From: a virus
Length of the DNA: 64,000 bases
Virus genome (UHGV): UHGV-0289908
Direction: 5' to 3' (one strand)
This document shows, piece after piece, positions 3,866 through 41,972 of this stretch. The notes beneath the pieces were generated by a model. The model made no database searches, was not told the DNA's origin, and saw only the letters and a list, made by a program, of their open reading frames with translations. Within the stretch, counting starts at the first letter, position 1. Each line of letters begins with the position of its first letter. The position numbers and the translations under genes were made by a program.

Positions 3866-3916
3866 CTAAAATATTATAAAATGAGTTGACAATGCTGTCG
3901 ATACATGATATTATAA
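3866..3916 (+). promoter_or_regulatory. Sigma-A-type promoter module (UP 'CTAAAATATTATAAAATG', TTGACA 3886-3891, 17-bp spacer, TGaTATTAT)
   Basis: Matches the reiterated consensus seen about 18 times in this window. Upstream of gmk. Confidence 0.6.
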
Positions 3917-6656: not shown

Positions 6657-6956
6657 ATGAGATATGAAACTGGAACGAGATTGAGACGAGTAGTAAGAGG
6701 ACAGGAATTTCATCTTGAAGGACTTGATACCTATGTTGTTGTAGGTCAATTAGACAATGGTTTTATTGTGCAAAGACCGCAAAGAGAAGAAGGGAGGGGT
6801 TGGATACTTCTGTCAAAAGAGCCCACAATAGCCGAAGAAGCAATCGCTATAGGGTTGATAACCAAGGAAGAAGCTCGTGAACGAAGATTTTGGTACTATC
6901 CAAACGACGCAGACGGATTTGAATTGGCAGGCAGTGTGATTCAGTGGATAAAATAG
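6657..6956 (+). CDS. Tandem paralogue 1 of 5 (about 100 aa, C-terminal IQWIK), function unknown
   Basis: Shares 'RFW(Y/W)YP' with paralogue 3 and a C-terminal (Q/E)WI(E/K/D) with all five. RBS 'TAGGAGGTGAAGTTATG'. Confidence 0.6.
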   Translation: MRYETGTRLRRVVRGQEFHLEGLDTYVVVGQLDNGFIVQRPQREEGRGWILLSKEPTIAEEAIAIGLITKEEARERRFWYYPNDADGFELAGSVIQWIK

Positions 6957-6969
6957 GAGGAGATAGAAG

Positions 6970-7281
6970 ATGTATTCGATTGGAACTAGAGTAGAAATTG
7001 TGGACGTAAATGACAACTATCGTATGAGAGGATTGGAGATAGGAGACCGAGGATGGGTAATACTCGAACCACGTGAACATGAAGTGGCGGTTATGTTTGA
7101 CAAAGAACTCTCATATGGATTAAGTTTTTCTCCTCATCGAAGCGACAATGCCCAAATTGCACAGATGATTGATAATGGAATTATGATGGATGGAGAACTT
7201 ATTCTGAACAGAAGCATTCATGTAGACTTTAATTGTATTAAGCCATGTAGGTTAGCACAGGCAATTCAATGGATAGAATAG
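6970..7281 (+). CDS. Tandem paralogue 2 of 5 (C-terminal IQWIE)
   Basis: Shares 'HEVAVMFDKE' with paralogue 4. The stop is embedded in 'TGGATAAAATAGGAGG'. Confidence 0.6.
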   Translation: MYSIGTRVEIVDVNDNYRMRGLEIGDRGWVILEPREHEVAVMFDKELSYGLSFSPHRSDNAQIAQMIDNGIMMDGELILNRSIHVDFNCIKPCRLAQAIQWIE

Positions 7282-7291
7282 GAGGAATAAT

Positions 7292-7606
7292 ATGAATGAA
7301 TCAATGGAGTTGAAAGTTGGAGACATTGTTGAATTCGTGAGTCGAGCAGATGATTCATGTGGAGAATGTGGAGGAGATAGAGGTAAGGTTGTCCGTGTTA
7401 GATATGATGGAATATGGGTATATCATCTAACAATGCCATGCGACACCGCATGGTCAATATATGACAGAGATGACTTTATAGCGGAGTGTCTTATCTCAGA
7501 AGGGGTCATTACAAATCACGAAGCACGTCAAAATCGTTTTTGGTGGTATCCTTTTAGTGCAGTAACAAAAGTGGCAAATGCTTCAAAAATTGAATGGATA
7601 GAATAG
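7292..7606 (+). CDS. Tandem paralogue 3 of 5 (C-terminal IEWIE), Cys-rich
   Basis: 'CGECGG', 'RFWWYP'. Confidence 0.6.
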   Translation: MNESMELKVGDIVEFVSRADDSCGECGGDRGKVVRVRYDGIWVYHLTMPCDTAWSIYDRDDFIAECLISEGVITNHEARQNRFWWYPFSAVTKVANASKIEWIE

Positions 7607-7616
7607 GAGGGGTAAC

Positions 7617-7928
7617 ATGTCATTTTCTAGCTTTAATCGAGGAGAACGAGTAAGAATAATCGCCCCCCAAAGAACGAAAGCCTTAGCCGTGGGGGATAAG
7701 GGATATATCATCAGAAATTCCAGTTTTGGACACTACGATGAAGTGGCGGTTATGTTTGACAAAGAATTCAGAGAGGGATTAAATTTCGTTGCGGGAGAAA
7801 ACAGTGATGAAGAGATAATCCGTCGTGGACTTGTGTATGCAGGTGAACATGTACAGAATCGTTCAGCATGGGTTCGAGTAGAAGACCTTGAACTCTGCTC
7901 AGACCACGAGATTCAGTGGATAGAATAG
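7617..7928 (+). CDS. Tandem paralogue 4 of 5 (C-terminal IQWIE)
   Basis: 'DEVAVMFDKEF'. Confidence 0.6.
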   Translation: MSFSSFNRGERVRIIAPQRTKALAVGDKGYIIRNSSFGHYDEVAVMFDKEFREGLNFVAGENSDEEIIRRGLVYAGEHVQNRSAWVRVEDLELCSDHEIQWIE

Positions 7929-7938
7929 GAGGTGCTAT

Positions 7939-8271
7939 ATGGTTGACAGTATGAATGGATTGTGCATAGGTGATAGAGTTATCATTTCTGGCAGTGGAGG
8001 AGATTTTGGAACTCCTTGTTCATGGATGGGGGAACGTGGAAGAATAATCTTTTTCGACACCGATGACGACTCTGCGGTGGTATTTTTTGACTCAAATATT
8101 GGACGCTGGGGATTGGTTGAATTAGATGAACCATACACCAGAGTCGAGCGTATTCAAGGTGGGCTAACAATGGGATGGTTTACTGAAAACGAACTAAAAA
8201 AAGAAAGATGTTCTTGGATAAGTGTTGAAAACCTATCACTGTTCTGCACACCAATTGAATGGATTGACTAA
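7939..8271 (+). CDS. Tandem paralogue 5 of 5 (C-terminal IEWID)
   Basis: N-terminal 'GDRVIISGSGG' beta-strand-like motif shared with the others. Confidence 0.55.
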   Translation: MVDSMNGLCIGDRVIISGSGGDFGTPCSWMGERGRIIFFDTDDDSAVVFFDSNIGRWGLVELDEPYTRVERIQGGLTMGWFTENELKKERCSWISVENLSLFCTPIEWID

Positions 8272-21373: not shown

Positions 21374-23944
21374 ATGAAGAATATTAATGGATTAACAAAC
21401 GCAGAAGTGGAATCGCAACGCATGCTATTTGGAGATAATAAGATTGCAGAAGCAGAACCAAAGAAGTTTTGGACAGAATGGTTGGCAAACTTTGAAGACC
21501 CAATGTTAAAATTATTAGTGGGAATTACAGTGTTAATGGCGGTAATCGCTGCCTTTGGATTCACAGAATGGTTTGAAGTCATTGGTATCTTAATCTCTGT
21601 GACAATCGTAACACTTATTTCAACAAAGACTGCAATGGTTTCAGATGGAGAATACCGCAAGTTAAAAGAAGAGAACTCTCATGAGACTTGTAAGGTATGC
21701 CGTAATGGACAAATTGAAATCATTGACACTAACGACTTGGTGGTTGGAGACTTTGTTTTAGTTCAATCGGGAGAGAAGATTCATGCAGATGGATTCTTAT
21801 ATGATGGGAACATTAAGGTAGACAACTCAGCGTTAAACGGTGAGTCAGATGAAGTTAAAAAGATTCCAACAGACTTCTATGACTTTGCAAATGGTGAAAT
21901 GACAGACTCTCACATGATGTTACGTGGAGCTTTAGTTGCTGACGGGGAAGGTGTTATGAAAGTAGCCAAGGTTGGAGCAAACACTATGATGGGACGTATG
22001 GCAGAAGAGATGACAGAAGAAGAGGTTGACTCTCCATTAAAAGTTAAGTTAACACACTTAGCAGAGCAAATCTCTAAATTCGGTTATATCGGAGCAGTAG
22101 TTATTGGATTAGCTATCTTAGGTAACTCAATCTTAAGTAACGGGCTACAGTCTTGGTTGGCACAACCATTCGCATTAATGGCTAAAGACGTGTTAAATGC
22201 CTTATTAGTATCAGTAACAATCGTAGTTATGGCAGTACCAGAGGGATTACCTTTAATGATTGCAATTGTATTAATGCAAAACACTTCAAAGATGTTGCAA
22301 CACAATGTATTAGTGCGTAAGGCAGTAGGTATTGAAACAGCGGGGTCATTAAACATCTTATTCTCAGATAAAACAGGAACTATCACTAAAGGTCAGTTAG
22401 AAGTAGTAAACTTCATTGACAAGGACGGAAACCAGTTTGATTCAATCACTGGATTAGACGAAGGTATGCAGAAGTTAGTTGCCACATCATTAAAGATTAA
22501 CAACTCGGCTATGATTGTAGACGGTGAAATCACAGGTGGGAACATGACAGACCGCGCTTTATTACAATATGTTAAAGATATTGAGCATGAAGATTTAAAG
22601 GTAGTAAAAGTGGAAACATTCAACTCTGCTAAGAAGTTCATGGCAACTCAATGTGAGACAGCAATGGGTCGTACATTAACGCTATACAAAGGTGCAGTTG
22701 AACGAGTATTAGACAAATGTATCAATATTACAGATGAAGAACGCAACAAAATCAACACTATTGTTGACGAAATGGCTAACAATGCAATCCGTGTACTTGC
22801 TATCAGTTATGCTCATGGAGAGTTAGTAGCAGGTGAATTATCACCAGAGATGAGCTTATTAGGGGTAATTGGTATCCGTGACGATGTTCGTCCAGAAGCT
22901 AAAACAGCCATTGCAGAAGTACAAAATGCAGGTGTTCAAGTAGTCATGATTACTGGAGACCGCAAAGAAACAGCAGTAGCAATCGCAAAAGACGCAGGAT
23001 TAATTACCAAAGACACAGATGTGGTATTAACATCAAGTGAATTACAGGACTTATCAGATGAAGAAGTAAAAGCAATCATTCCAAACTTAAAGGTAGTTGC
23101 TCGTGCATTGCCAACAGACAAGTCACGTATGGTTCGTTTATCACAGGAGCTAGGACTTGTAGCAGGGATGACAGGTGACGGAACTAACGACAGTCCTGCC
23201 TTAAAACGAGCAGACGTAGGGTTTGCCATGGGGTCTGGAACAGATGTAGCGAAAGAAGCAGGAGACATCATCATCTTAGATGACAACTTCAAGTCAATCG
23301 CAGACTCGGTGTTATATGGTCGTACTATCTATAACAATATCTTAAAGTTTATCAAGTTCCAATTAACAATCAACGTAGTAGCAGTATTTATTTGTGCAGT
23401 GTGCCCATTCTTCGGTATCCAAGAGCCATTAAACATTATCCAGTTGCTAATCCTCAATTTAGTAATGGACAGCTTAGGGGCTATGGCATTAGGTGGAGAA
23501 CCTGCATTAAAAGAGTACATGAATGAGAAGCCAAAGTCTCGTACACAATCAATCGTAGATAAAGCTATGATGATTCAAGTAGGTGCTATGGGAGCATTCA
23601 TGGCAGTATTAAGTTTATTATTCTTATTTGTTCCTATGTTCAAAGACATGTTTGGTCAAGCACATTTAACAGGATACTTCGCACTATTCATGTTGATGTC
23701 TGTATTCAATGGATTCAATGTGCGTAGCATGGATTCAAATGTATTCAAGGGATTAGATGAAAACAAAACATTCGCTAAGGTTATGGTTGCTATCGTTGCC
23801 ATCTTAGTAGTGTTAACACTCATTGGAGGAGAATTCTTATCAGTAACCCCAATGAACTTAGTGCAATGGGTTGTGGTGTCAGTAATGGCAGTAACAGTAA
23901 TTCCATTCGGAAGTTTCTTAAAAGGATTAATTTCGTCAAAATAA
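21374..23944 (+). CDS. P-type cation-transporting ATPase (type IIA, Ca2+-ATPase-like)
   Basis: 'DKTGTIT' phosphorylation site, 'MITGDRKETA', 'GDGTNDSPALKRADVGFAMG', an N-terminal cation-ATPase-N segment and about 8-10 TM helices. Confidence 0.85.
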   Translation: MKNINGLTNAEVESQRMLFGDNKIAEAEPKKFWTEWLANFEDPMLKLLVGITVLMAVIAAFGFTEWFEVIGILISVTIVTLISTKTAMVSDGEYRKLKEENSHETCKVCRNGQIEIIDTNDLVVGDFVLVQSGEKIHADGFLYDGNIKVDNSALNGESDEVKKIPTDFYDFANGEMTDSHMMLRGALVADGEGVMKVAKVGANTMMGRMAEEMTEEEVDSPLKVKLTHLAEQISKFGYIGAVVIGLAILGNSILSNGLQSWLAQPFALMAKDVLNALLVSVTIVVMAVPEGLPLMIAIVLMQNTSKMLQHNVLVRKAVGIETAGSLNILFSDKTGTITKGQLEVVNFIDKDGNQFDSITGLDEGMQKLVATSLKINNSAMIVDGEITGGNMTDRALLQYVKDIEHEDLKVVKVETFNSAKKFMATQCETAMGRTLTLYKGAVERVLDKCINITDEERNKINTIVDEMANNAIRVLAISYAHGELVAGELSPEMSLLGVIGIRDDVRPEAKTAIAEVQNAGVQVVMITGDRKETAVAIAKDAGLITKDTDVVLTSSELQDLSDEEVKAIIPNLKVVARALPTDKSRMVRLSQELGLVAGMTGDGTNDSPALKRADVGFAMGSGTDVAKEAGDIIILDDNFKSIADSVLYGRTIYNNILKFIKFQLTINVVAVFICAVCPFFGIQEPLNIIQLLILNLVMDSLGAMALGGEPALKEYMNEKPKSRTQSIVDKAMMIQVGAMGAFMAVLSLLFLFVPMFKDMFGQAHLTGYFALFMLMSVFNGFNVRSMDSNVFKGLDENKTFAKVMVAIVAILVVLTLIGGEFLSVTPMNLVQWVVVSVMAVTVIPFGSFLKGLISSK

Positions 23945-23985
23945 TATAAAATAGATTGACAACATATGACAATCTATGATATAGT
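23941..23985 (+). promoter_or_regulatory. Promoter module (TTGACA 23956-23961, 18-bp spacer, TGaTATAGT)
   Basis: Consensus. Confidence 0.55.
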
Positions 23986-24097
23986 TTAAATGCACCTAGG
24001 AAATAGTTTTTGACAGTCAGTACCTACCATGGTAGGTATTGGCAATCAAGAACTGATTCAAAAAGAGAGAGTGAGTTCTTAATACTTGTTAGGAGAG

Positions 24098-25543
24098 ATG
24101 AACATGAATTATAACCACAGAAGTTTTATTTGGGATTGTGACGCTTACAAGCTAGGACATATGTGCCAGTACCCAAGCGACACAGAATATGTTTACTCAG
24201 TATTACAATTACGCAGTGACCGATACTTCACTGAGACACCGATTGTTGGGTTACAATACCTAATTAAAGAGTACTTAATGCAACCAATTTTAAAAGGTGA
24301 TGTCGAAGGGCTAATTGCAGAAGCAAAAGCAATGGGAATCTATCACCCAGATACTGAAACAAAGTTGATGGCTTTAGTAGACTTAGGATACTTACCATTA
24401 GAGATTAAGGCATTACCAGAGGGTAGTGTTGTGGGAATGCCAAATGCAGTGTGTACAATTCAAAATACCGTTGCAGGATTCCACTGGGTAGTAGGGTTCG
24501 TAGAAACATTATTGTTAAAATGGTGGTCAGCCTTAGCAACAGGAGCTTGTAGCTTAAAGTATCGTCGCATTGTTGATAAGTACTTTGCAGAAACATCAGA
24601 CAACGACTTCTTACGACCATTCGCTGTTCATGATTTTGGTTCACGTGGGGCAATGACTCCAGAGGGAGCAGCTTTTACAGGAATGGCTCACGCATTAAAC
24701 TTCGATGGTTCTGACACAATCGTATCAGCTCCATTAATTCGCAAGTTCTACAATGCAGAAGGAATGGTAATCTGCTCAGTGCCTGCTAGCGAACACTCTG
24801 TAATGTGTTCATTTGGACGAGAAGATGAAATTAAAGCATTTGAGAACATGTTAGATATTTACCCTACAGGGATTGTTTCAATCGTTTCAGATACATATAA
24901 TTGGTACAATGTTATGGATAACATGACGCTACAACTAAAAGACCGCATTATGGCTCGTGATGGTAAAGTGGTATTTCGACCAGACAGTGGTAATCCATAT
25001 CACATCATTTGTGGCGAGTACACTGATAAGACATTGAGAAAGTATTGTGAAGAAAGCTGTCAAACTCATGGCGGAATCCATATGTTAGATAAAATATTTG
25101 GTCACACAGTCAACTCAAAAGGATACAAAGTATTGGATTCACATGTAGGACTAATCTACGGGGATGGAATGTATTTAGAACGTTTCGAGAAGACGTTAGA
25201 AACATTAAAAGACCTAGGATATAGTGCGGAAAACTTAGTAATTGGGGTAGGTGGAATCTTACGCAATCACACTCGAGATACTTTAGGAGCGGCATTCAAA
25301 GCGACTTGCGTGTGTCGTGATGGCAAATGGATTCCTATTATGAAAGACCCTATCACTGACCAAGGGAAGAAATCATATCAAGGCTTTGTATCCGTCATCA
25401 AAGAAGATGGACAATATAAAACGGTCGAAGGTGGACATCCACAAGACTTATTACAAACAGTGTTTAAGGATGGACAATTAGTAAAAGACTTCACTTGGCA
25501 GGAAGTTAAAGACCGATACAATTCAGAGTTAGGAGACCGATAA
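24098..25543 (+). CDS. nadV: Nicotinamide phosphoribosyltransferase family protein (NAMPT/NadV-like; candidate Namat of the phage NAD+ reconstitution pathway 1)
   Basis: Blocks 'LPLEIKALPEG', 'HDFGSRG', 'NFDGSDT', 'PASEHSV', 'VSDTYN', 'RPDSGNP', 'NSKGYKVL', 'IYGDG', 'DLLQTVFKDGQL' align one-for-one with NAMPT signature blocks. Confidence 0.85.
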   Translation: MNMNYNHRSFIWDCDAYKLGHMCQYPSDTEYVYSVLQLRSDRYFTETPIVGLQYLIKEYLMQPILKGDVEGLIAEAKAMGIYHPDTETKLMALVDLGYLPLEIKALPEGSVVGMPNAVCTIQNTVAGFHWVVGFVETLLLKWWSALATGACSLKYRRIVDKYFAETSDNDFLRPFAVHDFGSRGAMTPEGAAFTGMAHALNFDGSDTIVSAPLIRKFYNAEGMVICSVPASEHSVMCSFGREDEIKAFENMLDIYPTGIVSIVSDTYNWYNVMDNMTLQLKDRIMARDGKVVFRPDSGNPYHIICGEYTDKTLRKYCEESCQTHGGIHMLDKIFGHTVNSKGYKVLDSHVGLIYGDGMYLERFEKTLETLKDLGYSAENLVIGVGGILRNHTRDTLGAAFKATCVCRDGKWIPIMKDPITDQGKKSYQGFVSVIKEDGQYKTVEGGHPQDLLQTVFKDGQLVKDFTWQEVKDRYNSELGDR

Positions 25544-25544
25544 G

Positions 25545-26390
25545 ATGAACCGACAGGATGTAAAACGATTAACAGATGATTTTCGTAGTAATATTTATGT
25601 CAAAACTGTCCATGGCATGACAGTGGTTGATTTAGACCAGTGGGGAGCAGGAGAGTATCGAGTGACCTATGATATTTGTGAAAAGTATGGGAAATACATT
25701 CATTTGTATATTCCATACGCTACAATGAGCACCCTAGAGAAAGCCATTGTGTTTACACGCTTTGCTTATAAGCAAGGGGCAAAACTGCGTACAACAATAG
25801 GGTATGTGGCATATGGACGACAAGAGCGAGAAACTGGATTAGAACCAGAGCTATTCTCTGTAGTCAAAGACATGATTGCACACCTTCACAACGTGCACAT
25901 CATTGACCCTCATAACATTCCTTCTGCCCTTGAGTATAACACAGAGTGGTTTTCTCCTAAAATCAACGATATGTTGCCAAGGGGGTTCTTAATTGTAGCC
26001 CCAGACAAGGGAGCTGACACTCGCAACAAGAAATTAAATCTGCACTCTGACTATGTAATTGAAAAGGTTCGTACAGTAGACGGAGTAAAATCTCGCATTA
26101 TAGAAGATGACACATTCACTGGAGAAGTGGTTAACGACCCTATAGATTTTATTATCTATGACGACATTTGTGATGGAGGTCGCACTTTTGTGAACGTAGC
26201 AGACATTATGAGAGCCAAGTATCCAAACTGCACCATCACGCTATGTGTTGCACATGCTATCCTGCCTTTTGGGACAGACCATTTAAAAGGTAAGATTAAT
26301 AAGATTATCACGTCAAACACATGTTTCCCTGCGGGAACCTATGATGATGGATTCTTAGATGTTTTAAATGCGTTAAATATCTTCTATTAA
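25545..26390 (+). CDS. Ribose-phosphate pyrophosphokinase (PRPP synthetase) homologue; candidate Adps (ADP-ribose pyrophosphate synthetase)
   Basis: 'LIVAPDKGADTR', 'IIYDDICDGGRT' (PRTase-type nucleotide loop), 'CVAHAILPFG'. Starts 1 nt after the NAMPT-like stop, so likely an operon. Confidence 0.75.
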   Translation: MNRQDVKRLTDDFRSNIYVKTVHGMTVVDLDQWGAGEYRVTYDICEKYGKYIHLYIPYATMSTLEKAIVFTRFAYKQGAKLRTTIGYVAYGRQERETGLEPELFSVVKDMIAHLHNVHIIDPHNIPSALEYNTEWFSPKINDMLPRGFLIVAPDKGADTRNKKLNLHSDYVIEKVRTVDGVKSRIIEDDTFTGEVVNDPIDFIIYDDICDGGRTFVNVADIMRAKYPNCTITLCVAHAILPFGTDHLKGKINKIITSNTCFPAGTYDDGFLDVLNALNIFY

Positions 26391-26397
26391 AAATAGT

Positions 26398-26447
26398 TAA
26401 AATATTATAAAATAATGCTTGACGAATCAAGTCGAGTAATGTAAAAT
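26398..26447 (+). promoter_or_regulatory. Promoter module (TTGACG 26419-26424, 17-bp spacer, TGtAAAAT)
   Basis: Consensus. Drives the structured leader that follows. Confidence 0.5.
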
Positions 26448-26455
26448 AAAAGAGT

Positions 26456-26719
26456 ACCAAGGCGGTTCACTTCGAACCAGTCTTGGGGAAGAGTATCACT
26501 CTCCTCCAATTACCCAATACAAAAACCCTCGTGATACTCTTCCCCAAGACTCTAACCCCCTACTAAGGGTCTTGGCGAACAACATTGATAGTTGTAAATA
26601 AAAATCTAAAAATGAATCTTTCCCCTCTATCAGTGTTGTTCTCCAAGAGTCTTAATAAGATTCTTGATGAGAGATTGAAAAATGAAAGGAGCGATACAAT
26701 GTATACACGGAGTGATTAA
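26456..26719 (+). ncRNA. Roughly 260-nt highly structured leader / candidate ncRNA with nested alternative hairpins built on GTCTTGG / CCAAGAC
   Basis: Perfect 20-bp inverted repeat 26480-26499 / 26531-26550. Overlapping 7-bp pair 26545-26551 / 26569-26575. Further 'CCAAGAGTCTT...GATTCTTG' at about 26643. No ORF over 30 aa. Confidence 0.4.
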
Positions 26720-27283
26720 ATGAGCACTGAGCTAATGAATGAGTATCGAAACAGTCATAAGACTGTAATTACACTGAATGCGGAAACACTTGAATTGTAT
26801 GACAAATATCATGCAAAGCAACATCCATTCAGAAAGAATCAAAGCCTATCATGGCTAGGGAAGACACGAACTGGAGTGTTACCGATGTTAAACAACTTCC
26901 TTAATGTTCGCACTGCAATTCAACGCAGTCAACGTAAGGCAGATGTTGGTGATTATGTTAAATACACACTACAGTCACAGGGTGTTAAACAAACAATGAT
27001 TGAACATTGTATGGTAGTTGTCAAACACTATAATCCAACTAAACGAGAGTTCGACTTAGATGGTGTGAGCGTAAAAAGTTGTTTTGATGCAATGACTGCT
27101 CACGGATTTTGGGTGGATGACAATTACAAAGTAGTAAAACCACTAATCTTCACTGGAGGTTACGACAAAACCAATCCACGAAGTGAGATATGTGTTTACG
27201 AGATTACTGACGAATATCCATACGAATTTGTATTGCAAGTGGTTATGGATGAGTTACAGCAAGAAAGCGACAAAACTTGCTAA
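26720..27283 (+). CDS. Hypothetical protein
   Basis: ORF, 187 aa. Confidence 0.45.
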   Translation: MSTELMNEYRNSHKTVITLNAETLELYDKYHAKQHPFRKNQSLSWLGKTRTGVLPMLNNFLNVRTAIQRSQRKADVGDYVKYTLQSQGVKQTMIEHCMVVVKHYNPTKREFDLDGVSVKSCFDAMTAHGFWVDDNYKVVKPLIFTGGYDKTNPRSEICVYEITDEYPYEFVLQVVMDELQQESDKTC

Positions 27284-27328
27284 AATATTATAAAATATGT
27301 TGACAAAGTTCAACAAAAATGGTATAAT
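27281..27328 (+). promoter_or_regulatory. Promoter module (TTGACA 27300-27305, 17-bp spacer, TGgTATAAT). Overlaps the upstream stop codon.
   Basis: 31 bp identical to the module at 11720. Confidence 0.6.
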
Positions 27329-28557: not shown

Positions 28558-29196
28558 ATGAGCAAAACAGGAAAGACCTGTTGTGTGTCAGAATGTGACA
28601 AAAAGCACTATGCAAACGGCTATTGTGAAAAACATTATTGGCAAGTCAGAAGACATGGAAAAGTGGTCTTATGTACACGTAGCAAATTTGACAATAATGA
28701 AATCATCTTAAATGGAGATGAAACAGCAACCATTATAACCTATGATAATCATGGGGTTGCCAATGGTAAAACAATAATTTCTGATTCCTGTGTAGAACAG
28801 GTCAGAGACAAAAAGATTGGGAAACATACTTCGAAAGATTATTATTACATCCTAATTGACGGCAACCGCTATGCACTTCACCGCTATCTAATGAATGCTC
28901 ACCTTTCTAGGCATAAAGTGGTGGTTGACCACATTAACCGAAACCCGAGTGATAACCGACTATCAAATTTAAGAATAACAAACCATTCTGGCAACAACTG
29001 TAACAGAGGTTTAATGTCAAATAATTCACTAGGTATTAAAAATATTGGATTAACCAAGTACGGAACATATCGAGTGCAGATTTCTTTGAAAGAGAAGAAG
29101 CACAGTAAAACATTTAAGACACTTGAAGAAGCAATTAAATGGAGAAATGAAACTTTGGTTGCTCTACAAGGAGATTTTGCAAACATACAAGATTAA
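28558..29196 (+). CDS. HNH homing endonuclease with an AP2-like domain (paralogue of 14931..15572)
   Basis: 'CCVSECDKKHYANGYCEKH' Zn knuckle, 'VVDHINRNPSDNRLSNLRITNHSGN', 'GTYRVQISLKEKKHSKTFKTLEEAIKWR'. Confidence 0.7.
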   Translation: MSKTGKTCCVSECDKKHYANGYCEKHYWQVRRHGKVVLCTRSKFDNNEIILNGDETATIITYDNHGVANGKTIISDSCVEQVRDKKIGKHTSKDYYYILIDGNRYALHRYLMNAHLSRHKVVVDHINRNPSDNRLSNLRITNHSGNNCNRGLMSNNSLGIKNIGLTKYGTYRVQISLKEKKHSKTFKTLEEAIKWRNETLVALQGDFANIQD

Positions 29197-30300: not shown

Positions 30301-30330
30301 ATAGCAATTAGAGGGGGAACTTCCCCCTCT
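30301..30330 (+). terminator. Rho-independent terminator AGAGGGGGAA-ct-TTCCCCCTCT followed by CTTTTTTT
   Basis: 10-bp GC-rich stem and a T-run. Confidence 0.8.
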
Positions 30331-30358: not shown

Positions 30359-30856
30359 ATGGCTCGGAAAGTTAAATGTCCAGTTTGTGACAAGATGAAC
30401 CCAAAAGACGAAACCGTCAAATTGGGGAATCGCTACTACTGCCCTGCATGTGCAGAGGAGCGAAATCACCAACAACTATCAGATTGGGACATACTGTTCC
30501 AATACATCTGTTGGCTGTATCGTATCCCCAACTTAACTGGGCAAATGTATAAACAGTTAAAGGATTATCGAGACAACTGGGAATATACAGACATTGGAAT
30601 GTATCACACCCTAAGATATTACCATGAGATTCTTGGGAAGCCTGTCAAAGATGACGCAGGATTGGGGATTATCCCATATTACTACGATAGAGCAAAGGCA
30701 TTTATATACAAACAGTATTCACTTAAACAACAGTATGACCAATATAACCAAGAAGAGAAAGAGGTTTATGTGCAACGCACTCAGCCAGAACGATGGAAGA
30801 AACGAGAACCGTTAAATTTTGACACAGTAGATTGGGGAGATACTAATGAAGATTAA
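30359..30856 (+). CDS. Zinc-ribbon protein (N-terminal CPVC...CPAC)
   Basis: 'CPVCDKMNPKDETVKLGNRYYCPACAEE'. Confidence 0.45.
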   Translation: MARKVKCPVCDKMNPKDETVKLGNRYYCPACAEERNHQQLSDWDILFQYICWLYRIPNLTGQMYKQLKDYRDNWEYTDIGMYHTLRYYHEILGKPVKDDAGLGIIPYYYDRAKAFIYKQYSLKQQYDQYNQEEKEVYVQRTQPERWKKREPLNFDTVDWGDTNED

Positions 30857-32879
30857 AAAGGAAACCATTGAGAAATACTATGACACCAGAGCTTGTTGCC
30901 AAGTCCTAGGATGTCTAATGCTTGAACCACAACGTCTAAGCTCACGAGAAATGCAGGTAGCAGAGTTTGACTTTGTCTCACCAATTCACAAGACATTGTT
31001 TATTTCTATCTACAACTTAGGTTTACAAGGTCTTAAGGCTATCAGCTTGGGAGATGTAGAAACATACTTGGCGAACAACAATCCAGTTGGACATAAGAAG
31101 ATGTTTGAAGAGTGGAACGGAGCTGAATGGATTACAAGTATCCTAGAAGACGCTAATGTACACAACTACGACTATTACTATTGGATTGTTCGTAAGTTCT
31201 CGTTCCTACGTATTAAAATGCAGAATGGTCAAGATGTATCAGCTCTATTAGATATGACTGAGCTAGACTGTGAAGCGTTACGTATTCAACGTGAGAACTT
31301 CGATTTGCTAACTATTGATGATATTATTCGATACTTCGATTCAGTCAACCTATCTGCTAAACGACCATTCGTAACACGAGCAGAAGAAGCTCGTCGTAAA
31401 GCAGGAGACAACGCATTTGAGTTATTAAAGCAATTAGCCTTAGCTCCTTCATTTGGATTTGCTACTGAGTCTGCATATCTAAACACTATCATGCGTGGAC
31501 TACGACGAGGAACATTCATGCTCGAAACCCGTGATTCTGGTTGCGGAAAAACGAGGGTGGCGATTAAACGCCTATTATTAACTTCTGCTCCTTATCTATG
31601 GGACTTTAAGAAGAGAGCATTTGTTCGCAACCCACACACTCCTGTGGCAAGTTTATACATAGGTACAGAGATGGATTTATACACTGAGTTAGAGCCAATG
31701 ATGTGGGCTTTCTTATCGGGTGTGGACGAAGATAAAATCCATGCAAATACTCTGACACCAGATGAGCGTCAACGTGTAGAACGAGCGATTAAGATTCTAC
31801 AAGACACTCCATTATACTTAGAAGATGAAGAGAACTATGACATCTCTTTCTTATCTCACACTATTGAACACTACAAGACAGAATACAATATCGGAGTAGT
31901 TGCTATTGACTACTTAGAGTTAACATCTGCATTAACAACTGAGTTCACTCATACAACACGTGGAATGGGTGTACGTGAAGACCAAGTGTTATTAAACTTA
32001 TCTACTAATGTTAAGAACATGGCTAAACGCTTTGACATTGCCATGATTGGATTTACTCAAACTACTGACTTAGCACGTGCAGAGGGGGTTCGTGACCAAC
32101 GTGCCGTAAAAGGTGCTCGTTCACTTCCTAATAAATGTGACTTAGGGATGACTTCGTTTGCTCCTACCAAACAAGAGATTGAGTTATTAGAGCCATTAAT
32201 TGAGAAGTGTGGATTGAACAATGGTCGTTGTGTTCCTAACATTGGATACAACATCTACAAGAATCGTGGCGGTAAATTCAAGAACATTAAGATTTGGGGA
32301 TATCAAGATTTAGGAACAATGGAATATGTAGATTTATTCTGTACAGATGAATCATATGCTCCTATCAATGTTGATAAAACATACTTAATGCCTAATATCG
32401 TAGCCTTAACAGAAGAAGAGTATGACGAGAAGTATGGTAGCTTAGAAGAACAAGAAGCTCCAGAAGGGTATTCATTAGACGCTGAAACAGGAGAACTTGT
32501 TGAGATTGTTGAAGATGAGGACATTGACGCACCGTTAACAGATGAAGACATTAGTGGTTTCCATAAAGAAGAGGAAGAAGATGAATTAACAGAAGAAGAA
32601 ATTGCCCTAAAAGAATACGAGGAGCAAGTAAAAGCCTACAATGACGCTATGATGGCTCAATATGAAGGCGATGAAAGCCATGTATTGCAATACGATGAAA
32701 ATGGATTGCTACAAGCTATTCCAGTTGAATTTGAACCACAAGAAGAAGTAGAAGAAGCAATAGAAGAGTTAGAAGACCCATTTGCTGAACTTCCTATAAT
32801 TGATGATACGGAGTTAGACTTCTTAAATGAAGAAGAACCTGCTCCAACTTTAGGTACAAGAAAACGTATTGGATTCTAG
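30846..32879 (+). CDS. dnaB: DnaB-like replicative DNA helicase with a long acidic C-terminal tail
   Basis: Walker A 'RDSGCGKTR'. RecA-like core. About 150-aa Glu/Asp-rich C-terminus. Confidence 0.55.
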   Translation: MKIKKETIEKYYDTRACCQVLGCLMLEPQRLSSREMQVAEFDFVSPIHKTLFISIYNLGLQGLKAISLGDVETYLANNNPVGHKKMFEEWNGAEWITSILEDANVHNYDYYYWIVRKFSFLRIKMQNGQDVSALLDMTELDCEALRIQRENFDLLTIDDIIRYFDSVNLSAKRPFVTRAEEARRKAGDNAFELLKQLALAPSFGFATESAYLNTIMRGLRRGTFMLETRDSGCGKTRVAIKRLLLTSAPYLWDFKKRAFVRNPHTPVASLYIGTEMDLYTELEPMMWAFLSGVDEDKIHANTLTPDERQRVERAIKILQDTPLYLEDEENYDISFLSHTIEHYKTEYNIGVVAIDYLELTSALTTEFTHTTRGMGVREDQVLLNLSTNVKNMAKRFDIAMIGFTQTTDLARAEGVRDQRAVKGARSLPNKCDLGMTSFAPTKQEIELLEPLIEKCGLNNGRCVPNIGYNIYKNRGGKFKNIKIWGYQDLGTMEYVDLFCTDESYAPINVDKTYLMPNIVALTEEEYDEKYGSLEEQEAPEGYSLDAETGELVEIVEDEDIDAPLTDEDISGFHKEEEEDELTEEEIALKEYEEQVKAYNDAMMAQYEGDESHVLQYDENGLLQAIPVEFEPQEEVEEAIEELEDPFAELPIIDDTELDFLNEEEPAPTLGTRKRIGF

Positions 32880-32888
32880 GAGGGGCAT

Positions 32889-33662
32889 ATGACAAATAGA
32901 AGTAAAAAACATGAATACATGAACCAGACCTTCACTACAAATGAGGGGTACAATATCAAGATTGTAGATTATGTTAATAGTCGCAATGTGACAGTTGAAT
33001 TTGACAATGGATATAGAACCAATGCTCAACTTGGCTCAATTTTAAAGGGGAGAGTCTCATTCCCCTTTCACCCCTCTGTATATGGGGTAGGTTGCTTGGG
33101 GGTTGGAGAGTATCTGGCAAGTCATAAAAGAAAACACACAAAGACCTACAAAGTATGGCATAGCATGATGGCACGCTGTTATAGCAACTCTTGCTTGGCG
33201 AGCAGGAGCACTTATATGGATTGCTCTGTATACGAGGGATGGCACAATTTCCAAAACTTTGCCAAATGGTATGAAGACAACTATTATGAGATAGAGGGGG
33301 AGCAAATGCACTTGGACAAGGATATTCTTGTAAAGGGCAATAAGGTTTATTCCCCCGACACCTGTGTATTTGTTCCAGAAACCATTAACGGACTGTTTGT
33401 CAAAAGCAATGCCATTAGAGGGGCATTGCCAATAGGTGTCAGCTATCATAAAAAAGACAGGATGTATTACTCTCGATGTAATAATCAGCTATTGGGGAAG
33501 ACTATCACCATTGGGACTTTTACCACCCCCGAGGGTGCGTTCGAAGCCTATAAAGAATACAAAGAGAAGTATATTAAAGAAGTGGCAGAGAAATATAGGG
33601 GCAATATTCCTTCTCATCTGTATGACGCACTAATCCAGTATGAAGTCGAAGTTACTGATTAA
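32889..33662 (+). CDS. Freestanding HNH-family homing endonuclease (paralogue of 2742..3479)
   Basis: 'YKVWHSMMARC...YEGWHNFQNF..W' conserved with the 2742 protein. Lies between the helicase and the primase. Confidence 0.5.
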   Translation: MTNRSKKHEYMNQTFTTNEGYNIKIVDYVNSRNVTVEFDNGYRTNAQLGSILKGRVSFPFHPSVYGVGCLGVGEYLASHKRKHTKTYKVWHSMMARCYSNSCLASRSTYMDCSVYEGWHNFQNFAKWYEDNYYEIEGEQMHLDKDILVKGNKVYSPDTCVFVPETINGLFVKSNAIRGALPIGVSYHKKDRMYYSRCNNQLLGKTITIGTFTTPEGAFEAYKEYKEKYIKEVAEKYRGNIPSHLYDALIQYEVEVTD

Positions 33663-33677
33663 GAGAGGAGGAAGGAC

Positions 33678-33827
33678 ATGGATAGAGATGAATTATTAGA
33701 GTTGTATTCAACGGAAGATGTGATTAACTTAATGATGGACTTAGGGTCAACTTACCCAACTCCAGACCATCAAGGGAACTTATACTTTAACACAGTCTGC
33801 CATGGCAGGAGACTCTAAGAAGTTGCT
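33678..33827 (+). CDS. Primase N-terminal fragment (in the 0 frame), ends '...YFNTVCHGRRL*'
   Basis: Hand-translated. Supplies the C/H part of a C-H...C-x2-C zinc-finger motif that continues in the +1 frame of the 33802 ORF. Confidence 0.35.
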
Positions 33828-34803
33828 ATATTATCCCGAATCACGATTAATGATGTGTTTCAGTTGCTGTGGCTCTCTGAGTCTTTTTGACGTAGTTAGT
33901 GGAGCATTAAATATGGACTTTGGAGAATCCTTCAAATATCTTGCCAAACGCAAAGGTGTTGCACTTGGCAAGAGAAAGTTGGGTCTCCAAACCCTAAAAA
34001 TTGAAAATGAAGATTTAGAATTCTTAAGTATACATTTATACAAACCTAAGAAACAAAGCATTGAACTTCCTGCTTTTTCAGAAACAATTCTTAATGTATT
34101 CATGCCTGTATATCCATTAGATTGGTATAAAGAGGGGATTGGAGAAGAAGCCGCTAAATTATTTGAAATCGGGTACTACCCGTCTCAGAATCGAGCAACT
34201 ATCCCTCATAGAGACATCAATGGTAATCTGGTTGGAATTCGAGCTAGAAGTTATAATGATTATGAAGTTAACAACGGAAGAAAGTACATGCCCATTACTG
34301 TGCAAGGATTAACGTATCGGTATCCTATGTCTCACAATTTATATGGGATATATCAGAATCAAGACAACATCAGAAGACATAAGCGAGCTATTATCTTTGA
34401 ATCAGAGAAGAGTTGTTTACTTTATGAAACATTGTACGGCAGAGACAAAAACATCACTGTTGCACTATGTAGCATGAACATGTCTTTGTATCAAAGAGAC
34501 CTCTTGCTTAACCTTGGGGTCAATGAGGTCATCTTTTGCCTTGATAAACAATACACCCTAGAATGCTTAGAGACCAAAAAAGGTAAGGAATATCTTGGCT
34601 TCGTGTCATATGTTAAAAAGCTCAAAAGATTATCGGCAATGTTTATGAATTACTGTCAAGTATCTGTCGTATTGTGTTGGGATGATAGAATCGGTTATAA
34701 AGATGCACCTATCGACAGAGGGATTGCCACTTTTGAAGAACTACTGAATGAGAAATACTTAATTAGTGATACGTCACAATTTGATGAACTAATTGACGAA
34801 TAA
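33802..34803 (+). CDS. dnaG: DnaG-like DNA primase (zinc-binding plus TOPRIM region); N-terminus apparently frameshifted
   Basis: 'MMCFSCCGSL' Zn-motif half. Downstream acidic TOPRIM-like 'IFESEKS...LDKQ'. Position between the helicase and RecJ. Confidence 0.55.
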   Translation: MAGDSKKLLYYPESRLMMCFSCCGSLSLFDVVSGALNMDFGESFKYLAKRKGVALGKRKLGLQTLKIENEDLEFLSIHLYKPKKQSIELPAFSETILNVFMPVYPLDWYKEGIGEEAAKLFEIGYYPSQNRATIPHRDINGNLVGIRARSYNDYEVNNGRKYMPITVQGLTYRYPMSHNLYGIYQNQDNIRRHKRAIIFESEKSCLLYETLYGRDKNITVALCSMNMSLYQRDLLLNLGVNEVIFCLDKQYTLECLETKKGKEYLGFVSYVKKLKRLSAMFMNYCQVSVVLCWDDRIGYKDAPIDRGIATFEELLNEKYLISDTSQFDELIDE

Positions 34804-34812
34804 CGGGAGGAT

Positions 34813-36600
34813 TTGAATATGAAGTATATTGTTAAGAATAAAGATTATAGTTATGTAGCAGACACGGAATTATTAGAGCTGTTATTACAACAGCGTGGGG
34901 TAGCAAATCCTCAAGGATTATTAAACTTAGACCCGTCATGTATTCATGATGGGATGTTATTTAACAACATGAAGTGGGGGCTTGAGTTGCTAGCATGGCA
35001 CATTAACAATGGTAGCCGTATCCACATTATTATTGACTCAGACGTTGATGGCTTTACCTCTGCCGCCTTTATGTTCCAATACTTAACCGACTTAGGAGTA
35101 GAAGCAACTTACTCTACACACGTTGGTAAGGAACACGGTATTACCGAGAAGGCTATTGCGGGCTTTGATTTTGATTTATTAATTGTGCCAGACGCAGGAA
35201 CTAATGATGTTGAAATGAGCAAATACTTAGCAGACCAAGGTAAGGATATTATTATCCTTGACCACCATAAATTTGAAGGAGAATACAACACTCATGCCTG
35301 TGTTATCAACTGCCACGACGGACACTATCCCAACAACACCTTATCGGGGGTAGGAGTGGTTTACAAATTCTGTCGTGAATTTGACAAGATGTATGGTTTT
35401 GATTTTGCAAATTATTATTTAGACTTGGTTGCAGTAGGTCTTGTTGCAGATAGTATGGACTTACGCAACTTTGAAACTCGATTCCTTGCATTAGAAGGAA
35501 TTAAGCTGATTGGACAATGTAATGAGTTCTTAAAAGAGATTGCCATTGAACAAGAGTTCAGCTTAGGAGACGAAATCACCTTACACGGTATCAGTTGGTA
35601 TATTGCCCCATTAATCAACGGTGCTATTCGTGGTGGGTCTCAAGAAGAGAAGATTCGTGTGTGGGAAGCTCTTGCGGGATTCCGAGCAGAAGTTGAGTAT
35701 AAGCCACGCAAGTCAGCCAAGAATCCTAATCCACAGATTGAGATTCAAACCTTACAGAAAGCAATGGTGCGAGTATGTAAGAGTATTAAAGGGAAGCAAG
35801 ACCGTGAAATCAAAAAATCTGTTGCCACCATGCTAGACCACATTGAAGCAGAGGGGTTAGCAGAAGAGAAAATCATTATGATGGACGTGACAGATGTACT
35901 GGCTCAGTCTCATACAGGACTTGTTGCCAACAAACTTGCTTCTCAATTCAAACGTCCAGTTATCTTGTTGCGAGACAAAAAGAATGATGATTCGTCGTAT
36001 GGTGGCTCTGGTCGTAACTATTCACGATTTGCCGTTGACAATCTACGATTATTCCTATTGGAAACTGGACAATTTGAATCGGTGTCGGGACATGATTCTG
36101 CATTTGGATTTTCACTGCCTAAAGCCAATGTAGAAACACTACGCACACAGGTCAATGAACAGTTAAAAGACGTGGTAATTGAAGACGTGTATCATGTTGA
36201 TTATGAAATTGCTGTGGGTCGCTTAAAAGAGAAACATGTGAAGCAGGTTGGACAATGGAAGAACATGTGGGCAAATACGCTACCAGAACCAACGTTTGCC
36301 ATCACAGATGTTTATATTTCATCTGAGGAAATCAAGCTCTTGGGTGAGAAGAAGAATATCATTAGGTTTGACATTGTTCGTGGAGACGAAAAGATTGCCT
36401 TCATCAAACGATTTGCGTCAGAATCGTTGTATAATGAAATCATTCACCGTTCTGCTCATGGGTTGTCAAGTGGGAATAAACGACTCAAACTGACAGTTAT
36501 TGGGAAGTTCTCCATTAATAAGTTTAATGGAAATGAATACCCACAAGTGGAAATCGTTGATGTACTGAGTGAGGTACAAGCTCGCAAAGTAATGTTCTAA
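34813..36600 (+). CDS. RecJ-like DHH-family single-strand exonuclease
   Basis: 'IHIIIDSDVDGFTSAA' (DxD motif I), 'VPDAG', 'IILDHHK' (DHH), DHHA1-like 'GGSGRN...GHDSAFGF'. Confidence 0.7.
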   Translation: MNMKYIVKNKDYSYVADTELLELLLQQRGVANPQGLLNLDPSCIHDGMLFNNMKWGLELLAWHINNGSRIHIIIDSDVDGFTSAAFMFQYLTDLGVEATYSTHVGKEHGITEKAIAGFDFDLLIVPDAGTNDVEMSKYLADQGKDIIILDHHKFEGEYNTHACVINCHDGHYPNNTLSGVGVVYKFCREFDKMYGFDFANYYLDLVAVGLVADSMDLRNFETRFLALEGIKLIGQCNEFLKEIAIEQEFSLGDEITLHGISWYIAPLINGAIRGGSQEEKIRVWEALAGFRAEVEYKPRKSAKNPNPQIEIQTLQKAMVRVCKSIKGKQDREIKKSVATMLDHIEAEGLAEEKIIMMDVTDVLAQSHTGLVANKLASQFKRPVILLRDKKNDDSSYGGSGRNYSRFAVDNLRLFLLETGQFESVSGHDSAFGFSLPKANVETLRTQVNEQLKDVVIEDVYHVDYEIAVGRLKEKHVKQVGQWKNMWANTLPEPTFAITDVYISSEEIKLLGEKKNIIRFDIVRGDEKIAFIKRFASESLYNEIIHRSAHGLSSGNKRLKLTVIGKFSINKFNGNEYPQVEIVDVLSEVQARKVMF

Positions 36601-41450: not shown

Positions 41451-41500
41451 TAAAATATTATAAAACCTATTGACAGTGTTCGACACTGCATGATATAATT
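41451..41500 (+). promoter_or_regulatory. Promoter module (TTGACA 41471-41476, 18-bp spacer, TGaTATAAT)
   Basis: Consensus. Confidence 0.6.
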
Positions 41501-41501
41501 A

Positions 41502-41535
41502 CCCTGTGATTAAACGTCACAGGGTTTTTATTTTA
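41502..41535 (+). terminator. Hairpin CCCTGTGA-ttaaacg-TCACAGGG followed by TTTTTATTTT, immediately downstream of the promoter -10
   Basis: Perfect 8-bp stem and a T-run. Likely terminates the polymerase transcript; it sits at about +1 of the next transcript. Confidence 0.6.
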
Positions 41536-41552: not shown

Positions 41553-41972
41553 ATGTTAAGAGATGTAGCTTATGAAGAACATTCAATACTGAAGCACATT
41601 CGTGCAGACAAGATTGTTACAGACAATGTTAGAGTGCGTGGAACAGTCGAGCTAATAAAGACAGAGTATGACGGATATTCTAAAAAGAAAATGGTCTACG
41701 TTACAGACTTGAGTCTATGTAGTTGGGACAATACTCCAAAGTGCGATTTACCAGACATTAAGCTAAGAGTGAGTTATTCCGACAACTTTAAAAAGAATCG
41801 TGTAGAAAGCGGAGACCATATCGCTTTCACATGTAGAATTCAAATTGAACATCCTCAACAAACGTGTTACGATGGGCTAAGACCTAATCATTGCAACAAT
41901 ATTACAAAACTTATTGTTGCATATTATGAGCAATATCAGAATCTAAAGGAGGATGTAGATAATGAACAATAG
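41553..41972 (+). CDS. Hypothetical protein
   Basis: ORF. RBS 'CAAGGAGCGATTGTATG'. Confidence 0.45.
   Translation: MLRDVAYEEHSILKHIRADKIVTDNVRVRGTVELIKTEYDGYSKKKMVYVTDLSLCSWDNTPKCDLPDIKLRVSYSDNFKKNRVESGDHIAFTCRIQIEHPQQTCYDGLRPNHCNNITKLIVAYYEQYQNLKEDVDNEQ

Follow-up and report, generated by a model that had tools for sequence, protein, structure and literature searches.

A conserved, promoter-driven RNA leader with exchangeable helices upstream of a RusA-like resolvase gene in an uncultivated, distantly SPbeta-like phage

Genomic locus

The virus genome UHGV-0289908 was analysed over a stretch of 64,000 nucleotides (nt), hereafter called the window. Within it, a non-coding gap of 329 nt (26391-26719, + strand) lies between a gene for a Prs-like, i.e. 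ribose-phosphate pyrophosphokinase-like, protein (25545-26390) and a gene encoding a protein of 187 amino acids (aa), located at 26720-27283. The gap contains a promoter followed by a leader, and the analysis leaves little doubt that this leader is a real, cis-acting structured RNA. A promoter-driven structured leader had been described here in an earlier note, made from the letters of the DNA; both promoter and fold were upheld, and the coordinates proved correct within 1 nt.

The promoter (26399-26447, + strand) is of the sigma-70 type. It is composed of a AAAATATTATAAAAT box (26399-26413), a -35 element TTGACG (26419-26424) and a -10 element TAAAAT (26442-26447), and a scan with the consensus showed a 17-nt spacer containing a conserved TCGA. 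Alignment of the relatives revealed that it is kept at all homologous loci. About 19 near-identical promoters, each with the AAAATATTATAAAAT box before it, are found on the + strand of the window, and for this reason the leader promoter is very probably real; the transcript probably starts around 26453-26456. Members of this promoter family, where (gc)TAAAATATTATAAAAT is followed, after 3-4 nt, by TTGAC(A/T), 17 nt and TATAAT, are located before almost every gene or small operon of the + block, for example at 3886, 5144, 6471, 8306, 9350, 10580, 11740, 14222, 17559, 23956, 26419, 27300, 36633, 41470, 44369 and 48870. The conserved box ahead of them may act as an UP element, or a factor of the phage or of the host may bind there.

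The 187-aa gene, on the + strand, encodes a RusA-like Holliday-junction resolvase (PHROG 34, E = 3e-13); the profile of the family matches the RusA structure 1q8r of the PDB with E = 8.4e-5, over the catalytic D-x-D...K...D-A...DD segment. It is followed by genes for YorF, an HNH endonuclease, AAA_24/Sak4, YorH and DnaB, in the order of the SPbeta replication genes. The next promoter of the family, at 27300, is directly 3' of the RusA-like gene, so that the leader is primarily the 5' untranslated region (UTR) of this gene. Upstream of the gap, genes for a P-type ATPase, a NAMPT-like and the Prs-like protein are found, the last two resembling an NAD-salvage pair of phages. Among cultured phages, the SPbeta-like ones of Bacillus are nearest, with 27-30% identity in YorF. 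The source is an uncultivated, distantly SPbeta-like phage of the low-GC Gram-positive type.

Homologues of the RusA-like and YorF proteins were found only in Logan and ENA assemblies. The corresponding contigs (L019, L023 and so on, in the following) yielded about 10 distinct versions of the leader gap, and were the basis for comparing the leader among relatives.

Organization of the leader

All elements of the leader lie on the + strand. Its 5' end, AAAGAGUACCAAGG (26449-26463), is near-invariant in the alignment and contains the first of six short exchange segments, CCAAGG (26457-26462), which can pair with segments 2, 4 or 6 over 5-7 base pairs (bp). It is followed by P0, a small 5' hairpin seen in the folds (GGUUC-ACUUC-GAACC, 26464-26478), at whose position the L054-type relatives feature a different hairpin, ACUC-GAAA-GAGU. 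Other transcripts of the same phage, including many of those starting at promoters of the family, likewise open with small hairpins.

The main hairpin, HP1, is formed by arms at 26479-26499 and 26531-26551, separated by a 31-nt loop free of G. The perfect stem of 20 bp recognized in the earlier note is thus present and reaches 21 bp. Segments 2 (AGUCUUGG, 26479-26486) and 3 (CCAAGACU, 26544-26551) face each other at its base. A linker, CUAACCCCCUACUAAG (26552-26566), comes next and makes up the loop of an alternative hairpin between segments 3 and 4, identified by an inverted-repeat search and by constrained folds.

The second hairpin, HP2, has 31-nt arms (26561-26591 and 26627-26657), 84% complementary, with 5 of the 31 positions non-complementary, and a G-poor loop of 35 nt; segments 4 (GGGUCUUGG, 26567-26575) and 5 (CCAAGAG, 26643-26649) are contained in it. 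Segment 5 may instead pair with segment 6 to form HP3 (26643-26666), the further element previously seen at about 26643, which reads CCAAGAGTCTT-AAT-AAGATTCTTG as DNA and CCAAGAGUCUU-AAU-AAGAUUCUUG as RNA. HP3 has 10 contiguous pairs, competes with the base of HP2 and is present in the minimum-free-energy fold of every two-hairpin variant; in L030 it shows one-sided changes by which pairing is retained. An unstructured, purine-rich tract, AUGAGAGAUUGAAAAAUGAAAGGAGCGAUACA (26667-26698), completes the leader and includes the Shine-Dalgarno (SD) sequence AAAGGAG (26685-26691). HP2, the 5' CCAAGG segment, P0 and a mini open reading frame (mini-ORF) with a strong SD, described below, had been overlooked before.

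Two further interactions were considered and abandoned. A pairing of the P0 loop with the SD of the resolvase gene, predicted in the fold of the window sequence, was by inspection not kept in L019 and L023. Pairing of the HP2 loop (AAUCUUUC) with the GAGAGAUU tract into a pseudoknot was seen by eye only and was set aside, the sequences being too few and HP2 dispensable.

Evidence for an RNA fold

The RNA, taken as 269 nt, folds with -86.3 kcal/mol, as compared to -51.5 +/- 4.8 kcal/mol for 200 dinucleotide shuffles, none of which was as good (0/200, z = -7.32). HP1 is the sole perfect one among the eight inverted repeats of at least 16 nt, within 150 nt, of the 64-kb window, and a scan of the window revealed that the GTCTTGGSGAA motif is over-represented at the leader only.

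Covariation was evaluated on arms taken from the native sequences, after swapping the variable loops for a fixed spacer and collapsing identical stems. In HP1, 14 of 21 pairs are changed on both sides and 98.8% of the cells are paired; none of 500 shuffles was as good, and partners slid out of register reached at most 51% of paired cells. For HP2 the corresponding values are 7 of 25 pairs and 93.3%. Conservation of the pairing at homologous loci had been set beforehand as a test by the earlier note, and the helices turned out to be kept by compensatory changes. When HP1 and HP2 are taken together, the cells departing from Watson-Crick pairing are 22 G.U and 12 true mismatches, with no A.C: the + strand is therefore the one that folds, in agreement with the direction of the promoter.

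A stem of at least 20 bp is found in all the variants (12/12). In the ten close variants it is contiguous and 20-26 bp long, except that the 20 pairs of L030 flank a single mismatch, and in L066 it measures 20 bp. Loop lengths vary between 5 and 110 nt, and the loop sequences show no relation to one another; the loop of HP1 is hypervariable and that of HP2 more conserved. Few unpaired positions are conserved outside the exchange segments and the SD tract, in a set of only about 10 distinct sequences. In L019 (about 2995-3105) and L064 (about 1640-1705), the loop of the long hairpin carries 3-5 tandem copies of AAAGT(A/T)TTATACA(A/C), resembling both the promoter box AAAATATTATAAAAT and the DnaA box (TTATNCACA); the L019 loop also features an internal 10-nt inverted repeat, TTGTGCAAAA / TTTTGCACAA.

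Interchangeable helices

Segments carrying CAAG (1, 3, 5) and CUUG (2, 4, 6) alternate strictly in every variant, in the order 1-2-3-4-5-6 or, in single-hairpin forms, 1-2-3-6. Each CAAG segment is able to pair with each CUUG segment, almost always over at least 5 contiguous bp, and over 4 bp for a few extra copies of the motif outside the six segments. The nested, alternative GTCTTGG/CCAAGAC pairings indicated by the earlier note are found throughout, and are near-isoenergetic. The one it had drawn between the 3' arm of the stem and 26569-26575 is present as 26540-26553 with 26566-26579, 14 nt in length and 86% complementary.

Constrained folding defines two families of structures. In the nested family, pairing of segment 1 with 4 or 6 closes a junction, which contains the 5' hairpin and the full-length HP1 (2:3). 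In the serial family, segment 1 pairs with 2, HP1 is shortened and segment 3 pairs with 4 or 6. The two are 1.0-9.5 kcal/mol apart, out of total energies between -47 and -89 kcal/mol. When the four segments were aligned, the paired cells were also about equal, namely 79% and 98.6% for the two helices of the nested scheme and 80.6% and 87.5% for those of the serial one. In addition, the four corresponding positions change in concert, from C,G,C,G to A,U,A,U to G,U,A,U. Such concerted change fits selection for both schemes, and equally co-evolution with a protein site or homogenisation of repeats. As modelled, the four segments would have the topology of a four-way junction with a branch point able to migrate.

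Ribosome site and mini-ORF

The SD GAAAGGAG sits in the unstructured tract and precedes the resolvase start by 28-35 nt. GAAAGGA never varies, and only L054 and L057, which have GAAAGGAC, lack the complete GAAAGGAG. Like STAB-SD sequences, this is an SD-like polypurine, complementary to the 3' end of 16S rRNA, inside a 5' UTR and upstream of the main start. RNAalifold found no consensus structure in the relatives between segment 6 and codon 13. The mean unpaired probability of the purine tract with this first SD is 0.5-0.97, and, in all the variants, the ensemble leaves the first SD, the AUG of the mini-ORF, the second SD and the resolvase start largely unpaired. L066 is an exception, as its last CUUG-type segment pairs with the SD in the predicted optimum.

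The mini-ORF (26699-26719, + strand) consists of six codons, MYTRSD*, and its 3' half holds the SD of the resolvase gene, GGAGUG (26709-26714). Its UAA stop abuts the resolvase AUG in the window, and across the variants it is either abutting or at most 8 nt away. Length and position are kept in 10 of 11 variants, the exception being L064, and codons 2 and 3 vary freely. The mini-ORF lies 3' of all the helices, and no leader peptide overlaps them. The statement that no ORF is found for about 260 nt stands as far as conserved ORFs are concerned, the mini-ORF apart. A 44-aa ORF starting with TTG, mechanically detected at 26585-26719, was rejected as a coding sequence, being located across a region deleted in relatives (L019, L054 and L064).

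The resolvase start region features two in-frame AUGs, 15 nt apart. The second one opens the invariant protein sequence (LMNEY), which leaves some doubt as to which of them is the true start codon. Two tandem copies of a 19-nt repeat, CACGGAGTGATTAAATGAG / CACTGAGCTAATGAATGAG (74% identity), extend across the start (26706-26743).

Occurrence in related phages

The promoter, the AAAGAGUACCAAG start, the 5' hairpin, the long hairpin and a UUCUUGA-GAGAG...UGAAAGGA(G/C) tract are kept in all versions of the gap. Two architectures were observed: one with two hairpins, in the window, L023, L027, L028, L029 and L030, and one lacking HP2, in L019-21, L054-63 and L064. The flanks of the one-hairpin form look like the product of a deletion between segments four and six. 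In L066, whose RusA homologue is 37% identical, the leader is shorter (about 105 nt) and organized in the same way, being composed of a 5' hairpin, a hairpin of 20 bp with CUCUUG/CAAGGG at its base, and another, CAAGG/CCUUG, that competes.

The gene 3' of the leader is the RusA-like gene in every relative carrying it. Upstream, four contexts were found: the NAD cassette, the P-type ATPase, a DUF5659 gene (L054-63) and, in L066, a TnpB-like (IS605 OrfB) gene. In L029 the ATPase, 90% identical to that of the window, is directly upstream of the leader, and the same arrangement is seen in L064. The leader is thus kept without the NAMPT/Prs cassette in L029, L064, L054-L063 and L066, and always before the RusA-like gene, so that the link to the NAD pathway, proposed on the basis of the neighbouring operon, is unsupported. 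The cassette itself (24086-26390) is present or absent, between the ATPase gene and the leader, in relatives otherwise 86-90% identical (L029, L064); some relatives feature an extra 84-aa gene between the NAMPT-like and Prs-like genes.

The leader was found in no searched collection other than the Logan and ENA assemblies. Comparison of the region by blastn with 50,697 phage records produced no match, and tblastn with the RusA-like protein detected only mycobacteriophage RusA, at about 32% identity. In IMG/VR, the RusA family profile retrieved only relatives of about 30% identity, none with an upstream hairpin of at least 15 bp, and a degenerate pattern for the hairpin base gave 18 matches, taken as chance and left unread. 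A pattern for the 5' motif yielded no or only chance matches in IMG/VR, JGI metagenomes and GTDB genomes; L033 and L034, which matched it, were read and found not to be homologous. The leader is absent from L031, whose RusA homologue is 46% identical, and from SPbeta, where YorE is not RusA-like. The leader-bearing clade is composed of large uncultivated phages assembled from metagenomes or SRA runs, at least one of them labelled as gut.

Searches against known RNA classes

At gathering thresholds, no Rfam model, those of the NAD+-I and NAD+-II riboswitches, of EAR and of known phage motifs included, matched anywhere in the window; when the limit was raised to E = 10, nothing appeared beyond generic models of long hairpins (miRNA), with scores far under their cut-offs. 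ARAGORN found no tRNA or tmRNA gene in the window. No hairpin followed by a U tract, as expected of an intrinsic terminator, is present in the leader.

These results, together with the ribosome region being mostly unpaired, do not bear out the attenuator- or riboswitch-like character formerly attributed to the leader: as neither terminator nor SD masking was found in the window-type form, it is neither a classical attenuator nor an SD-masking switch. For the former, competing helices exist, none with a U tract, and the mini-ORF is 3' of them all; for a metabolite riboswitch, a ligand-dependent terminator, an SD-sequestering helix and an association with pathway genes are all missing. Stems like those of RNase III-processed leaders, i.e. 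conserved helices of at least 20 bp, are instead present, with 20-26 bp in 12 variants and supporting covariation. We regard the leader as a previously undescribed structured RNA of a known kind, the structured mRNA leaders of phages and Firmicutes, with an unusual design based on exchangeable helices.

Additional observations

A strong intrinsic terminator (AGAGGGGGAACUUCCCCCUCU followed by a U run) is located at 30310-30330, between AAA_24/Sak4 and YorH, whose SD follows after 15-20 nt. Conservation extends to most of the relatives checked (L023, L028, L054, L064, L065 and L066), and SPbeta has an annotated stem-loop (101995-102029) at the same position. Elsewhere in the window, the promoter at 41470-41499 is followed by a 10-bp hairpin with a U run (41501-41525), ahead of the ORF at 41553-41972, in an arrangement resembling a promoter-proximal terminator or attenuator.

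Upstream of the NAD cassette, the window encodes at 21374-23944 a full-length P-type cation-transporting ATPase of 856 aa (E1-E2 ATPase, Cation_ATPase_N/C), conserved in relatives and unusual as phage cargo. A 31-nt imperfect palindrome (24000-24059, 77% complementary) lies between the promoter at 23956 and the NAMPT-like gene; found also in L029, which lacks the NAD genes, it may represent another hairpin of a leader, or else an operator.

Free-standing HNH endonuclease genes are inserted among the replication genes at 28558-29196 and 32889-33662 and are absent there in relatives, which have a GIY-YIG gene elsewhere (L024-L026, 10-855). In L024, L025, L028, L054 and L065, the DnaB slot is occupied by a short gene call of 235-241 aa, with a weak match to the DnaB N-terminus in some and none in others. 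The HNH/GIY-YIG pattern looks like traffic of homing endonucleases. Five consecutive ORFs of 99-110 aa, spaced by about 320 nt, occupy 6657-8271, where promoter-like strings with near-identical upstream context, at 7097 and 7756, suggest tandem paralogous small genes. In L066, about 560 nt separate the end of the TnpB-like (IS605 OrfB/Cas12f-like) gene, at 1-255, from the resolvase gene downstream, and the guide RNA of the TnpB-like gene may be contained in the interval 256-700.

Discussion

Our preferred, though still tentative, reading is that the cis-acting leader controls, after transcription, the dose and timing of a potentially toxic nuclease. In low-GC Gram-positive bacteria, endonucleases cut structured 5' UTRs, and 5'-to-3' degradation by RNase J1 follows, until the enzyme meets a ribosome sitting on a strong SD. 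By analogy, the stems of at least 20 bp may be processing sites for the host RNase III, which is specific for double strands, and exchange of partners at the base of the stem would determine whether the enzyme is offered the full length of 20-26 bp or just about 13-14 bp, as a stub. After cleavage, the 3' half could pair anew, with the CUUG segment that comes next, and form another 5'-terminal hairpin, so that the exchange would also set the structure capping the processed 5' end. A ribosome at the STAB-SD-like site and on the mini-ORF would block decay in the 5'-to-3' direction and, by termination and reinitiation, would let a limited number of ribosomes reach the resolvase start. Low-level delivery of this kind would suit a junction-cutting nuclease, needed late and in small amounts.

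Several of these steps have parallels in Firmicutes. The STAB-SD of cry3A is GAAAGGAGG, and a polypurine stabiliser downstream of an RNase III site of phage SP82 is said to have been described by Hue et al. in 1995, a paper listed as reference 179 in PMC3997798. As in cry3A and hbs, a strong polypurine, GAAAGGAG, is located in a long 5' UTR, 3' of structure expected to be removed; unlike in those cases, the SD drives here a conserved, coupled mini-ORF of 6 codons, and the upstream structure is strongly conserved and made of exchangeable helices. The STAB-SD of cry3A blocks RNase J1 (PMC4113751), and the structured 5' UTR of hbs undergoes cleavage, the mRNA being protected by a ribosome that occupies a strong SD (PMC5737220). 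In Firmicutes, RNase III regulates genes via leader cleavage, and it cuts the early RNA of SP82 (PMC4838370). The resemblance to known RNase III sites, such as those of SP82, T7 (R) and the lambda N leader, lies in stems of at least 20 bp near early-type promoters, the stem being conserved and the loop free. The difference is that cleavage is here a prediction and that the alternating CAAG/CUUG segments could resize the substrate. With leaders based on terminator/antiterminator or SD/anti-SD switching, the RNA shares a conserved chain of mutually exclusive helices and, in L066, a predicted pairing of the SD; it differs from attenuator and riboswitch platforms in that the window-type form has no terminator, SD masking, recognisable aptamer or overlapping leader peptide. 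We know of no counterpart of alternating, substrate-resizing CAAG/CUUG segments among RNase III processing hairpins.

Several considerations weigh against this interpretation. Whereas the structure is shown, we only infer that RNase III cleaves it, that the mRNA is stabilised and that translation is coupled. The presence of RNase III, RNase J and RNase Y in the host is assumed from promoters and SDs of the Gram-positive type. B. subtilis RNase III is described as having a narrow specificity (PMC4838370), and a 21-bp stem is hence not proof of cleavage. The resolvase can do without the leader, as L031 indicates. The output of the partner exchange is the weakest link, because neither predicted conformer alters the accessibility of the ribosome site. 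Finally, concerted change of the segments could partly be due to template switching or gene conversion between nearby repeats, and the repeated identical helices may be protein-binding sites instead.

The last possibility, which we judge unlikely, can be formulated as follows: the CCAAG/CUUGG duplex, found in two to three copies in any fold, would be the site of a phage or host regulator binding double-stranded RNA, with the alternative pairings as a by-product. The segments are indeed almost invariant next to stem pairs which vary freely, any pairing scheme yields the same duplex, and copies changing in concert are what co-evolution with a single binding protein would produce. Yet 5 bp of duplex would be very little for a specific site, the neighbouring genes revealed no candidate RNA-binding protein, and in L066 the segments have another sequence and keep the logic of exchange.

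Somewhat less probable is an autoregulation by substrate mimicry, where the RusA-like resolvase would bind a mobile RNA four-way junction in its own leader and repress itself. The idea is invited by the sequence of the segments: as 1 and 3 share CAAG, and 2 and 4 (or 6) share CUUG, a junction made of P0, HP1, 3:4(6) and 1:4(6) migrates without net loss of pairs, and all four corresponding positions changed in concert. The identity of the protein is supported by PHROG 34 and 1q8r, and the leader accompanies the RusA-like gene even at 37% protein identity, in L066, where the segments differ (AGAGG/CCUCU, CUUG/CAAGG) and the exchange persists. Nevertheless, a plain RNA switch or repeated sites for a protein account for the pattern equally well, the fourth arm is a mere loop of 7-9 nt in the single-hairpin variants, and RusA-like genes of about 30% identity occur without a structured leader. 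RusA acts on B-form DNA, whose junctions differ in geometry from those of RNA. Phage T4 provides a parallel, its gp43 and gp32 being autoregulated via mRNA mimics of their DNA substrates. The likeness is one of idea only, a substrate-resembling RNA preceding the gene of a nucleic-acid enzyme: binding of the resolvase to the leader is purely hypothetical, and no report was found in the literature of any junction resolvase which binds an RNA junction or regulates itself. If true, autoregulation through an RNA mimic of the substrate would be a first for DNA-junction enzymes.

We consider similarly improbable an antitermination of the put/EAR kind, by which polymerase modified by the leader would read through the terminator between AAA_24 and YorH and express the helicase-primase block. 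As for HK022 put and Bacillus EAR, stem-loops acting in cis come immediately after the promoter and a conserved terminator, at 30310-30330, is found further down the operon. Moreover, since no promoter of the family is located between this terminator and 36633, the genes at 30359-36600 need read-through. Against this, a consensus promoter without leader, at 27300, feeds the same terminator, SPbeta has its stem-loop at the yorG/yorH position and no leader, and no Rfam model is similar. The bulges and loops of put are conserved, whereas in the leader, which is much larger, the loops are hypervariable and the stems long and perfect.

A stand-alone small RNA is less probable still. One or both hairpins, once excised, would act in trans, either as a decoy or by pairing the C/U-rich, G-free loops (CUCCUCC, UUUCCCCUCU) with the SDs of target mRNAs, as C-rich loops of Gram-positive small RNAs do. 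G-poor, pyrimidine-rich loops are present in the two-hairpin variants, and the long stems would stabilise a processed product. Replacement of the HP1 loop by A/U-rich TATACA repeats in L019 and L064, however, argues against a conserved target in trans, no terminator defines a 3' end, and the linkage to the resolvase gene is strict.

Very unlikely is also an element acting as DNA, be it an origin, a cruciform substrate for the resolvase, a single-strand priming hairpin or a miniature transposable element, although the gap is non-coding, located at the head of the replication module and provided with long inverted repeats, and although the L019 and L064 loops contain 3-5 tandem TTATACA(A/C) boxes, loosely similar to DnaA and promoter boxes. 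These loop repeats are not conserved, and no inflection of GC skew is seen at the site. With 22 G.U and no A.C, the opposite-strand hairpin of a cruciform would carry A.C mismatches; as a symmetrical Watson-Crick folding is thereby missing, as 5 of 31 HP2 positions are non-complementary, and as loops of 31-110 nt disfavour extrusion, a symmetrical DNA cruciform is unlikely. A single-stranded DNA hairpin of the + strand remains compatible with the strand asymmetry. Origin and cruciform were rejected, and so was the transposable element: there is a single copy in 64 kb, no target-site duplication was seen on reading the flanks, and the arms differ between relatives in a compensatory way.

Judged on context, a riboswitch or attenuator with mutually exclusive helices, responding to NAD+, ADP-ribose or nicotinamide, is largely refuted and retains hardly any probability, for, real, conserved and near-isoenergetic as the exclusive helices are, and close as the leader follows the NAMPT-like/Prs-like pair in the window, no terminator, SD-masking helix or Rfam riboswitch (even at E up to 10) was found, conserved unpaired nucleotides are few, in this small set of sequences, outside the exchange segments and the SD tract, several leader-bearing relatives miss the NAD cassette, and the controlled gene is a resolvase.

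The analysis thus corrects a tempting but wrong tie of the leader to the neighbouring NAD-salvage cassette, of anti-defence type. With its alternating complementary segments, which evolve in concert, and its isoenergetic folds, the leader offers a clean natural case of a multi-state RNA. If our preferred reading, dose and timing control of the resolvase, holds, the phage may limit the amount of a dangerous nuclease, and time its appearance, with no need for a protein repressor, by means of double-stranded RNA processing sites, a ribosome-bound stabiliser and a coupled mini-ORF.

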